Below are positions 13,542 to 21,458 of a stretch of 32,000 bases of DNA, piece by piece. Each line of letters opens with the position of its first letter. The first letter of the stretch is position 1. The notes beneath the pieces are model-generated. The model searched no databases. It had not been told where the DNA came from and saw only the letters and a program-made list of their open reading frames with translations. Position numbers and translations under genes: made by a program. The DNA comes from Mycolicibacterium smegmatis. Lineage in GTDB: Bacteria; Actinomycetota; Actinomycetes; Mycobacteriales; Mycobacteriaceae. The stretch spans positions 5,970,001 through 6,002,000 of the forward strand of contig NZ_LN831039.1 in NCBI RefSeq assembly GCF_001457595.1, given 5' to 3'.

Positions 13542-13550
13542 ACGCGAACG

Positions 13551-13591
13551 CAGTTGAGGCCTGCTCGATTCGAGCAGGCCTCAACTGTTTT
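13551..13591. terminator. Strong hairpin terminator (17-bp perfect stem, followed by TTTT on the plus strand) between the convergent echA19 and Pro-rich genes
   Basis: CAGTTGAGGCCTGCTCG (13551-13567) pairs with CGAGCAGGCCTCAACTG (13571-13587), followed by tttt at 13588-13591. Confidence 0.8.
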
Positions 13592-13595
13592 CAGC

Positions 13596-13922
13596 TCAGC
13601 GCCAGTGTCCGGGCGGTCTGGGTGGCGGCGGAGGCCCCCAGAATGGCGGCGGCGGTGGTGGCGGCGGCAACCAGATCGGCGGCGGTGGCGGGGGCCGCCA
13701 GAACGGCGGTGGTGGCGGCGGGGGCGGCGGTGGCCCCCAGAACGGCGGCGGTGGCGGCGGCGGTGGCGGGAACGCCGGCACCGGCCCGAGCACACTCATC
13801 GGTGCCGAGTCGCCCGCCGGTTGGGCACCGGCCAGCGCAGCGGCGCCTGTGGCACCCGCGAAAAGCGCGCCCCCCAACAGAACTCCGCCCAACAGTCGTC
13901 GCCCCGGTAAATGTCGTGCCAT
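13596..13922 (-). CDS. Small secreted polyproline-(F/I)W repeat protein (hypothetical)
   Basis: ORF 13596..13931. I prefer the second in-frame ATG (13922, MARHLPGRRLLGG...) because the GAAGGA SD (13936->13931) is 8 nt upstream of it. Signal-peptide-like N-terminus with RR, then proline runs of 9, 10, 6, 8 and 5 separated by FWG/FWR/IWL/FWG. Confidence 0.6.
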   Translation of the reverse strand: MARHLPGRRLLGGVLLGGALFAGATGAAALAGAQPAGDSAPMSVLGPVPAFPPPPPPPPPFWGPPPPPPPPPPFWRPPPPPPIWLPPPPPPPPFWGPPPPPRPPGHWR

Positions 13923-13995
13923 GACGTACATCCTTCGGTCGTTGCGTATCCCCCCGATTTCTCGAGACTATCTAATTAGTCGGCCTAGGAGGAAC

Positions 13996-14034
13996 CTGTG
14001 AAACCCTATGCACAGCTGACGCTTAAGTTCACAC
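13996..14034. repeat. Degenerate copy of the palindromic unit (TGTGAA...CAGCTGACG...TTCACAC)
   Basis: Shares TGTGAA / GCTGACG / TTCACAC blocks with the units at 14067 and 14996. Confidence 0.4.
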
Positions 14035-14066
14035 AGCCGGCGCTCATGGGTCCCACCGTTCCCGAA

Positions 14067-14116
14067 TGTGAATCCACAGCGAATCTTTCGCCGATTTTTC
14101 GCTGACGTTTCACACT
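14067..14116. repeat. 50-nt palindromic unit, copy 1 (aTGTGAAtccaCAGCGAA...TTCGCTGacgtTTCACAc)
   Basis: Internally self-complementary. Its last 25 nt (14092-14116) are the perfect reverse complement of 14996-15020. Confidence 0.75.
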
Positions 14117-14152
14117 CGAGGAGTTGTCGGTGCCTTACGGCACACTCCCCAC

Positions 14153-15001
14153 ATGGGGGATCCAGTCATCGGCACCGAAGCCATCGCCGCGGGCATCGCG
14201 ACGCCCTATCAGCTCCGTAGCCGGTACTGGCCGGTGTACCCGGGCATCTACGTACCGAAGGACACCCAACCCACGGCAGCGCTGCGGGCAAAGGCCGCGT
14301 GGTTGTGGTCGGATCGGCGCGCGGTGCTGGCGGGTCGTTCGGCGTCGGCGCTGCACCGTTCGAAGTGGCTCGATCCACGTGCACCCGCCGAACTGATCCA
14401 CGACAACCGCCGTCCACCATGTGGGATAAAGACGTGGCTGGATCGATTCGAGGACGACGAGATCACCGTCGTCGACGGGATGCGCGTGACGACGCCGGCG
14501 CGCACGGCGCTGGACCTGGCCTGCCGGTACCCGCTCGATACCGCCGTGACGCTGATCGACGCGCTCGCCAACGCCACCCGGCTCAAGATGGCCGACGTCG
14601 AACTGCTCGTGGACCGGTATCGGGGCCGGCGAGGCATCAAGAACGCACGCCACGTGCTCGACCTGGTCGATGGCGGCGCCGAGTCACCCCGCGAGACGTG
14701 GCTGCGGTTGGAGGTGATCCGCGGCGGCTTCCCGCGTCCACAGACCCAGATCCCGGTTCACGACGAATACGGGGTGCTGGTCGGGGTTTTCGACATGGGC
14801 TGGGAGGACGCCATGGTCGGCCTCGACTACGAGGGCGACCAGCACCGGACCGACCGGCGACGGTTCAACCGCGACATCCACAAGTCCGAGGACGTCAGAC
14901 GGTTGGGCTGGACCCACATCCGGGTGACCGCTCAGGACGGCGAAGCCGACATCCTCAAGCGCATCGAGGCGGCAGGTGTTCCGCGCGGTCCGCGAGTGTG
15001 A
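14153..15001 (+). CDS. AbiEi_4-like N-terminal domain plus DUF559 (Vsr/restriction-endonuclease-like fold) C-terminal domain protein
   Basis: ORF 14153..15001, 282 aa. N-terminus GTEAIAAGIATPYQLRSRYWPVYPGIYV. C-terminus ESPRETWLRLEVIRGGFPRPQTQIPV...FDMGWEDAMVGLDYEGDQHRTDRRRFNRD. This family is multi-copy in actinobacteria. The position corresponds to Rv3517 (279 aa, from memory), but orthology was not verified. Confidence 0.75.
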   Translation: MGDPVIGTEAIAAGIATPYQLRSRYWPVYPGIYVPKDTQPTAALRAKAAWLWSDRRAVLAGRSASALHRSKWLDPRAPAELIHDNRRPPCGIKTWLDRFEDDEITVVDGMRVTTPARTALDLACRYPLDTAVTLIDALANATRLKMADVELLVDRYRGRRGIKNARHVLDLVDGGAESPRETWLRLEVIRGGFPRPQTQIPVHDEYGVLVGVFDMGWEDAMVGLDYEGDQHRTDRRRFNRDIHKSEDVRRLGWTHIRVTAQDGEADILKRIEAAGVPRGPRV

Positions 15002-15045
15002 AACGTCAGCGAAAAATCGGGCGAGAATTCGCTGAGGTTTCACAC
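14996..15045. repeat. 50-nt palindromic unit, copy 2 (inverted relative to copy 1), overlapping the stop codon of the DUF559 gene
   Basis: gTGTGAAacgtCAGCGAAaaatcgggcgagaaTTCGCTGaggtTTCACAc. About 41/50 identical to the reverse complement of copy 1, and the first 25 nt are identical. Confidence 0.75.
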
Positions 15046-15072
15046 TCGCGGGCCTGAGACCAGCGGCGAGAC

Positions 15073-21395: not shown

Positions 21396-21458
21396 CGCCG
21401 AAACGGCATTCCGGCAGGCAAAGTGCGAGTGCACGCCTGCCGGAATGTCGTTTCGGCG
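21396..21458. terminator. Long hairpin (24-bp stem with one mismatch, 15-nt loop) downstream of ltp3; a likely factor-independent terminator without a U-tract
   Basis: CGCCGAAACGGCATTCCGGCAGGC (21396-21419) pairs with GCCTGCCGGAATGTCGTTTCGGCG (21435-21458). Confidence 0.55.

Follow-up and report, generated by a model that had tools for sequence, protein, structure and literature searches.

The stretch of DNA analyzed here (hereafter the window) comprises 32,000 nucleotides of Mycolicibacterium smegmatis (assembly GCF_001457595.1, contig NZ_LN831039.1, positions 5,970,001 to 6,002,000 of the forward strand), and the element in question is a small cassette in which a nuclease-like gene is enclosed by two palindromic units. 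The gene, located at 14153–15001 on the forward strand, encodes a 282-residue protein of the Rv3517 family, in which an AbiEi-like winged-helix half is followed by a PD-(D/E)XK nuclease of the Vsr/DUF559 type. It is the single open reading frame (ORF) between the upstream unit (unit 1, 14059–14122) and the downstream unit (unit 2, 14989–15052). Its ATG lies exactly 36 nt past unit 1 as placed by a preliminary description of this locus, and its stop codon, TGA at 14999–15001, lies inside the GTGTGAA of unit 2; the bracketing of one ORF that had been described is hence borne out. The neighborhood consists of cholesterol-catabolism genes encoding an acyl-CoA synthetase, an enoyl-CoA hydratase, and a P450. 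In M. tuberculosis, Rv3517 sits between echA19 and cyp142 (PMC6429209). Since the window gene has neighbors of the echA19 and cyp142 type, it occupies the position of Rv3517.

Both units are self-complementary over approximately 56–64 nt each. Unit 2 has a stem spanning 14987–15054 and a folding energy of −52.7 kcal/mol (z = −10.4). Unit 1, which has an imperfect stem, folds more weakly (−22.5/−27.8 kcal/mol, z about −4.5 to −5), and its core GTGTGAA...TTCACAC is located at 14066–14115 once the register of unit 2 is applied. Each unit is an inverted copy of the other, with 60-nt arms that agree at 85% (14063–14122 versus 14989–15048), which together with the folds confirms the first claim made for this locus. 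A 25-bp perfect inverted repeat had also been reported; it is real, as the 25-mer CCGATTTTTCGCTGACGTTTCACAC occurs exactly twice in the window (14091–14115 on the forward strand and 14996–15020 on the reverse strand; 0.00 expected by chance), but the true perfect run is 28 bp (14091–14118 / 14993–15020). The earlier coordinates of unit 1 and the 25-mer were off by one. A third, degenerate unit had been described as well, and it is found as TGTGAA-N25-TTCACA at 13997–14033, one of only three such matches in the 32 kb (0.01 expected). This decayed unit retains exact arms but has lost approximately 10 nt of its interior, which shows as a gap inside its alignment to units 1 and 2; it folds no better than shuffled sequences and gave no covariance-model match. 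No strand is assigned to any of the three units. A chance origin of the window repeats was rejected, as shuffled sequences gave 0 matches. A covariance model built from 80 units (R1) matched unit 1 at 56 bits (E = 1e-11, both strands) and unit 2 at 74.5 bits (E = 2e-16).

The unit is also related to a known small RNA (sRNA) of M. smegmatis. The Rfam model RF02470 (Ms_IGR-8, 63 nt) at a relaxed threshold aligned over its full length to unit 2 at 38.3 bits (E = 2.6e-6) and also matched unit 1, at 23.4 bits; both scores are under the gathering score of 44. Because the full model aligns with the conserved CCGCGAGUGUGAA and yet remains below threshold, the unit is regarded as a relative of Ms_IGR-8 and not as a curated member. 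At the gathering threshold, no Ms_IGR-8 match was obtained in 20 other loci scanned. The Ms_IGR-8 consensus, CCGCGAGUGUGAA-stem-loop-stem-UUC, corresponds to one copy of a window-type unit, although the Rfam entry describes a single sRNA gene and not a DNA repeat that is dispersed and linked to a protein family. For the units, a canonical intrinsic terminator was rejected; they have no U-tract.

The encoded protein fuses a winged-helix DNA-binding half (approximately residues 1–175) to an apparently active nuclease (approximately residues 176–270). In Pfam, AbiEi_1 and REase_MTES_1575 both fell under their cut-offs (22.4 bits against 38.2 for the latter), and there was no DUF559 match; the NCBIfam scan gave no match, and a PDB sequence search gave nothing useful. 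The AbiEi models of PADLOC matched residues 26–148 (E = 4e-10). An AlphaFold (AF2) model, which had a pLDDT of 91, was compared using Foldseek with the PDB, where the best match was Rv2827c, the AbiEi antitoxin of M. tuberculosis (1zel; prob 0.99 over 217 columns). The C-terminal domain matched the catalytic domain of I-Bth0305I (3r3p; prob 0.92, TM 0.63 on the target) and also PvuRts1I (4oq2; prob 0.80). The PADLOC match and the structure matches back the domain assignment, for which the Pfam scores are sub-threshold, and likewise the AbiEi-like plus DUF559-type fold of the preliminary description. In an alignment of 17 diverse relatives, E181, D214, Y226, G228, H231, D241, and R257 were invariant, and the nuclease motif E...D...(D/E)Y(E/D)GxxH was conserved. 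Fold and motif thus resemble those of the Vsr-like, DUF559, and EDxHD nucleases of the PD-(D/E)XK class, including I-Bth0305I, except that the window protein itself is under the Pfam cut-offs and that, unlike the gene of this homing endonuclease, its gene is free-standing between palindromes and not within an intron or intein. No transposase domain, either Y1 (HUH) or other, was found in the Pfam, NCBIfam, and PADLOC scans or with Foldseek.

The association between this gene and the units was evaluated in two samples. A gene-ascertained sample consisted of 80 metagenomic loci (371 kb) that were picked by their protein alone, at 49–67% identity. With R1, about 61 of 77 evaluable loci showed an upstream unit whose end lies approximately 30–40 nt short of the start codon, and about 65 of 75 showed a downstream unit that overlaps the stop codon (tallied from the table of matches); approximately one match was found elsewhere in the 371 kb. 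A strict hairpin test agreed with R1, and subtypes that are poorly represented in the model (those with GTCACGCTAG arms) were visible by eye in further loci. The left arm supplies the stop codon in each subtype, as TGA in GTGTGA, TAA in CGTAAC, and TAG in CACGCTAG. A palindrome-ascertained sample was collected from species-representative genomes by the outer arms CGAGTGTGAA-N32-40-TTCACACTCG, which gave at least 120 loci, nearly all from Mycobacteriaceae. Among the matches listed, which include 123 strict units, a homologue of the gene was present in 20 of 120 loci holding 23 of the 123 strict units, nearly all of them directly flanking it, and the homologues that adjoin a unit have units of the same subtype on both sides. 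The other 100 strict units are solo. In mycobacteria, the unit subtype tracks the protein clade. The strict full palindrome of the window's own subtype had no match in the species-representative genomes, among which the source species is not included.

Individual loci give the same picture. In Mycobacterium sp. 141, a 78%-identical homologue lies between thiG and an ABC transporter gene, flanked by two units, and at the DNA level it resembles the window from the upstream unit as far as the downstream unit and no further. The complete genome of the slow grower M. heckeshornense has the order echA19, unit, gene, unit, cyp142. Gene and repeats therefore belong together, as had been supposed. This applies to approximately 80 independent loci and to several genomic contexts that are unrelated, and it extends to other families of actinobacteria: the repeat does occur elsewhere but is strongly tied to this gene family, and at the Rv3517 position, where the gene is syntenic, the repeats are retained. 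Two loci filed under other taxa (L023, a Bifidobacterium breve metagenome-assembled genome (MAG), and L066, an Acidobacteria MAG) carry typical mycobacterial-type units, which probably reflects mis-binning of the contigs and not a real presence of the units beyond Mycobacteriaceae. In a Pyrinomonadaceae (Acidobacteria) MAG (L059, L075, L088, L091, L119, L124), a palindromic repeat peculiar to it, GGAAACGCGAGTGTGAACGAGCGTGC..., is present six times or more and shares CGAGTGTGAAC arms with the mycobacterial-type units; tblastn found no nuclease homologue in the 8-kb pieces of these loci.

Distant homologues (28–36% identity) in Tsukamurella tyrosinosolvens and Arthrobacter extend this relationship. 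Three Tsukamurella genes (L213, L214, L215) and two of Arthrobacter (L216, L218) each have their own flanking pair of 60–70-nt palindromes, which are unrelated to the mycobacterial unit and to one another. Again the stop codon lies at or in the left arm, as in ATTGAAC of L215 and GTTGAGG of L218. Two of these proteins exceed the Pfam DUF559 cut-off of 20.6 (L213 with 23.8 and L215 with 21.5), and Arthrobacter L218 is just under it with 20.3. These palindromes recur at approximately 5–10 further sites, in the same genome only, with approximately eight solo copies per palindrome family in Tsukamurella. The L213-, L215-, and L216-type palindromes occur at several other sites of their own genome and nowhere else in 7.3 Gb of PLSDB, the L214-type has three further sites, two of them partial, and the L218-type was detected only within its own replicon. 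Three sampled solo copies lie between convergent unrelated genes. The layout of unit, approximately 35-nt conserved spacer, ORF, and stop-overlapping unit is hence a conserved property across Mycobacteriaceae, Tsukamurella, and Arthrobacter. Palindrome sequences are particular to the gene lineage, and solo members of a lineage's palindrome family are scattered through the same genome, just past the stop codons of unrelated genes. Where one genome holds several gene lineages and each of them is framed by a dispersed palindrome family of its own, this is the signature of REP/RAYT systems, in which repetitive extragenic palindromes (REPs) go with REP-associated tyrosine transposases (RAYTs).

The spacer of approximately 35 nt between the upstream unit and the ORF is itself conserved. 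In the window, it contains TGTCGGTG (14125–14132) and, after six nucleotides, GGCACACT (14139–14146); this motif (14125–14146, forward strand) ends 6 nt ahead of the ATG, and its consensus derived from 95 loci is TGtCGGtG-N6-ggcACaCT-N6-ATG. It was present in 58 of 79 gene-ascertained loci, whereas among 200 solo-unit sides it was present in 1. Counted from the A of the ATG, the A and T of CACACT fall at −11 and −7, which is the geometry of mycobacterial leaderless promoters. No sigma-70 consensus was matched in the spacer, and a plain sigma-70 promoter at the units was rejected. The motif may also act as an operator, since CACACT is a repeat of the unit's right arm. Judged from its sequence, the spacer is probably a promoter of a leaderless mRNA, an operator, or both. 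The sole case among the 200 solo sides is locus L120 (1–922, reverse strand), in which a unit and the same motif (GTGTCGG-N10-CACACT-N6-ATG) stand ahead of a gene for a ComF-like phosphoribosyltransferase, not a nuclease.

An operator function leads to one alternative, namely that this is an autoregulated AbiE-like toxin-antitoxin or defense gene, in which the nuclease is the effector and the units are merely operators for the AbiEi-like domain. The N-terminal 175 or so residues are indeed homologous to AbiEi antitoxins of the type IV AbiE system, such as Rv2827c, and AbiEi proteins bind inverted repeats. Repression of their own promoters through inverted repeats is characteristic of these antitoxins and counts for this explanation, which we nevertheless consider very improbable. 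No AbiEii-type toxin partner adjoins the gene, as its neighbors are the genes for the enoyl-CoA hydratase (echA19) and the P450 (cyp142) in the window and likewise in L210. Besides its AbiEi models, PADLOC found just one weak match, to a Type I specificity subunit (E = 0.03). The C-terminus is a nuclease, unlike in AbiE, and the repeats not only flank the gene at either end but are also dispersed; an operator role explains neither the downstream unit nor the dispersed solo copies.

Solo units have a characteristic position. A coding frame supported by the GC content of third codon positions (GC3) runs into the unit on 95 of 188 evaluable solo-unit sides, and its stop codon is mostly found 6–30 nt before the unit, or at the built-in TGA in nine cases. 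A cruder test of stop-codon supply, based on open frames of at least 100 codons, gave the same result for solo units and control frames, and the GC3-based test was used instead. One pair of units (L069, 6465–7395, Mycolicibacterium flavescens) lies 865 nt apart and flanks a short-chain dehydrogenase (SDR) gene, so that pairs around genes other than the nuclease exist. Position at gene ends recalls the "Tuberculosis Rho-independent terminator" (TRIT) of the RNIE study, a palindromic, bidirectional, Mycobacterium-restricted motif that is located at gene ends and begins inside the coding sequence (PMC3152330). Its authors proposed a protein factor that binds TRIT (PMC3152330). The units share these properties and, judged by the published description, may belong to the TRIT family. 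TRIT itself was interpreted solely as a terminator acting in RNA, with no gene reported to accompany it. An unsupervised motif study described a palindromic pair, CGAAA(N)19TTTCG, as a possible new motif that is widespread in Mycobacterium genomes, with a spacing that differs from that of the inner stem of the units (PMC5217627).

It could accordingly be proposed that the units are passive bidirectional 3′-end terminator or insulator hairpins of the TRIT or Ms_IGR-8 type, used by the host after many genes. A potentially toxic nuclease gene would then be shielded and transcribed from its own promoter only, the protein would act elsewhere (in repair, in defense, or in a toxin-like manner), and recombination between units would be driven by the host. 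The location of solo units just past stop codons fits this proposal, as do the solo copies of Tsukamurella exactly between convergent genes, the gene-end position and restriction to Mycobacterium described for TRIT, the filing of Ms_IGR-8 as an RNA species, and the promoter-like spacer, which implies autonomous transcription. However, mycobacterial RNA polymerase needs a U-tract in vitro (PMC3993855), which the units do not possess. Predicted TRITs overlap just 2–4% of mapped 3′ ends. The proposal also leaves unexplained why each distant paralogue has its own genome-dispersed palindrome family, why approximately one fifth of the strict units among the matches listed are at this gene family, and why upstream and downstream units are homogenized. 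It explains where solo units are placed, but not the lineage-specific pairing of gene and palindrome, and is on the whole judged unlikely.

This homogenization is evident when the interiors of units are compared. Over 43 loci, they are 0.79 alike within a locus versus 0.65 between loci. At the echA19–cyp142 locus of 15 genomes, the upstream unit (U) and downstream unit (D) are 0.82 alike within a genome, versus 0.69 for U with U and 0.66 for D with D between genomes (p = 5e-6), and the closest relative of U is its own D in 8 of the 15. Since U and D resemble each other within a genome more than orthologous units do between genomes, they undergo concerted evolution. Furthermore, the whole cassette is reversed between the same two neighbors in L135, L164, and L201, which are nested at separate places in the clade of this locus and hence represent at least three flips. 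The flanking units thus recombine with each other, as both the concerted evolution and the in-place inversions show. Classified by interior sequence, the flanking pair has a direct orientation in 23 loci and an inverted one in 7, with 13 loci ambiguous, and the inverted layout of the window is therefore a minority case.

When flanks were clustered, four large syntenic contexts emerged, which differ from one another in protein clade and in unit subtype, and 33 flanks remained as singletons. No near-identical cassettes were found in different contexts, and no close homologues were found on mycobacterial plasmids or phages. No target-site duplication (TSD) was visible at the ends of the window cassette or of L007; such duplications at further copies had been suggested as a check. 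These data do not sustain the picture of a minimal transposon with terminal inverted repeats (TIRs), and the preliminary idea of a mobile element is only partly right. A TIR transposon or MITE (a miniature inverted-repeat transposable element) was rejected, since the units are palindromic and mostly direct, no TSD is seen, and no transposase domain is present; with most copies in old syntenic loci, the cassette is not a rampant or classical TIR transposon. In L212 (1692–4300, Mycobacterium sp. DL99), cyp142 lies upstream in the same direction and a gene for an AAA ATPase lies downstream in place of echA19, which marks a synteny break. A difference in flanks between L171 and L174 was set aside, as it falls at a contig end.

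A milder form of mobility, near to the earlier idea of a homing cassette, was also considered. Palindromes would pre-exist for host reasons, and a selfish "spacer-ORF-unit" segment, with a protein that recognizes a resident unit, would insert beside that unit by unit-by-unit recombination, thereby duplicating it. The cassettes in different contexts are bounded exactly by units, L045 has echA19 and a unit without the nuclease gene, and the nuclease domain resembles the homing endonuclease I-Bth0305I, all of which would be expected of such an element; the cassette at the synteny break of Mycobacterium sp. DL99 and the listing of Rv3517 as missing in several species (PMC6429209) point the same way. 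We consider this explanation improbable, as near-identical copies were not found in different contexts, most copies lie in four old syntenic loci, no TSDs are visible in the flanks, and none are on mycobacterial plasmids or phages. It differs from the best reading, given below, mainly in which partner depends on the other.

That best reading, put forward tentatively, is that the units form a REP-like hairpin family and that the enclosed gene encodes the cognate protein of this family, in a REP/RAYT-like partnership with a nuclease that is not of the Y1 type. REP-type repeats are tied to one enzyme family, the RAYTs, mostly in Proteobacteria. As in the REP/RAYT systems (REPtron, REPIN-RAYT), the gene has a copy of a short palindromic repeat on either side and is single-copy per lineage with largely vertical inheritance; several gene lineages, each with its own repeat family, also coexist in one genome, here that of Tsukamurella. 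Dispersal is a less certain likeness, in that solo copies of the flanking repeat do occur at intergenic sites of the same genome but at a low density (approximately 1 per 100 kb of the mycobacterial sequence examined). The differences are equally clear. RAYT is a Y1/HUH transposase of the IS200/IS605-like type, whereas an AbiEi-like winged helix and a PD-(D/E)XK nuclease are found here; the units are longer (56–70 nt) than typical REPs and low in copy number; they flank the gene mostly in direct, not inverted, orientation; the stop codon lies inside the downstream unit; and the hosts are Actinomycetota. Since no Y1 transposase is present, the system is considered REP/RAYT-like in its working but not a member. 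A REP-like element, protein-binding site, or terminator had been the second suggestion for this locus; it is closer to the evidence than the mobile element, but the best fit is a REP-like family plus its cognate flanked gene, which combines both ideas. In the literature searched, we found no paper linking DUF559, AbiEi, or Rv3517 to palindromic repeats, and the system appears to be an undescribed variant, in Actinomycetota and with a PD-(D/E)XK nuclease, of the theme of REP plus cognate gene.

In this REP-like partnership, the AbiEi-type winged-helix half would recognize the two-fold symmetric outer arms (CGAGTGTGAA / TTCACACTCG), either on duplex or on extruded hairpin DNA, and the Vsr/DUF559-type half would nick or cut at the units. 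Repair from another unit could lead to gene conversion and inversion and, rarely, to excision of the "spacer-ORF-unit" segment or its integration at another unit. Such rare integration would explain the cassettes in new contexts that are bounded exactly by units. The upstream unit together with the TGTCGGTG-N6-GGCACACT spacer would probably constitute the operator and promoter of the leaderless mRNA, while the downstream unit would form the 3′ hairpin of the transcript.

Several observations weigh against the REP-like partnership. The copy number is low for a REP family, with about 1 unit per 100 kb of the mycobacterial sequence examined and, in Tsukamurella, about 10 for each family. Several species keep solo units at orthologous sites (e.g., L015/L022/L026/L028/L055/L082), which implies that spread is slow at best, and they have no spacer motif and are hence not simply scars of the cassette. 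In the few pairs compared by eye, the solo subtype matched the clade of the resident gene in 2 of 4. Unit subtype and protein clade could vary together simply through joint inheritance of a cassette that was duplicated, and host-driven recombination between nearby palindromes could account for the exchange between units. No palindromes were seen in Nonomuraea (L217). In favor of the partnership, stems are maintained through compensatory changes over 80 units, with 84% paired and 309 double-sided changes versus 130 ± 13 in shuffled sequences, but this statistic is partly circular because the units were chosen as hairpins.

A wider proposal, possible but still more doubtful, is that the AbiEi–DUF559 nucleases of the Rv3517 family are a second, Y1-independent class of REP-associated proteins, with each gene lineage, throughout Actinomycetota, making, homogenizing, and maintaining its own palindromes, including the mycobacterial "TRIT terminators" and the sRNA Ms_IGR-8. 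If this is true, systems of a repeat plus its guardian arose more than once, here in Actinobacteria with a protein of restriction-endonuclease fold. It would also provide a candidate for the protein factor, predicted by the RNIE authors, of the long-unexplained conserved hairpins at mycobacterial gene ends, and a testable role for Rv3517, a conserved hypothetical gene in the cholesterol-catabolism region of M. tuberculosis. The units would further stand out as places where mycobacterial genomes undergo inversions and breaks of synteny.

Other features were observed in the window. An ORF at 13596–13931 on the reverse strand encodes a signal-peptide-like N-terminus followed by proline-rich PPPPFWGPPPP repeats, and its opposite strand is a GGC-rich tandem repeat. 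It occupies an interval from echA19 to the cassette that is empty in other species, and the gene calls of contig L001, which is 99% identical, do not include it. Directly past the stop codon of the echA19-like gene, a near-perfect hairpin with 23-nt arms (13546–13592) is followed by TTTTC, which is terminator-like, and its sequence is unlike that of the units. At 7049–7130 on the forward strand lies a full-length match to the Rfam model RF02464 (Ms_AS-4; 107.5 bits, gathering score 50), an actinobacterial sRNA unrelated to the cassette. A strong 63-nt hairpin of another sequence type (CGCCGAAACGGCATTCCGGCAGGC...GCCTGCCGGAATGTCGTTTCGGCG), with one mismatch in its 20-nt arms, is located at 21396–21458.

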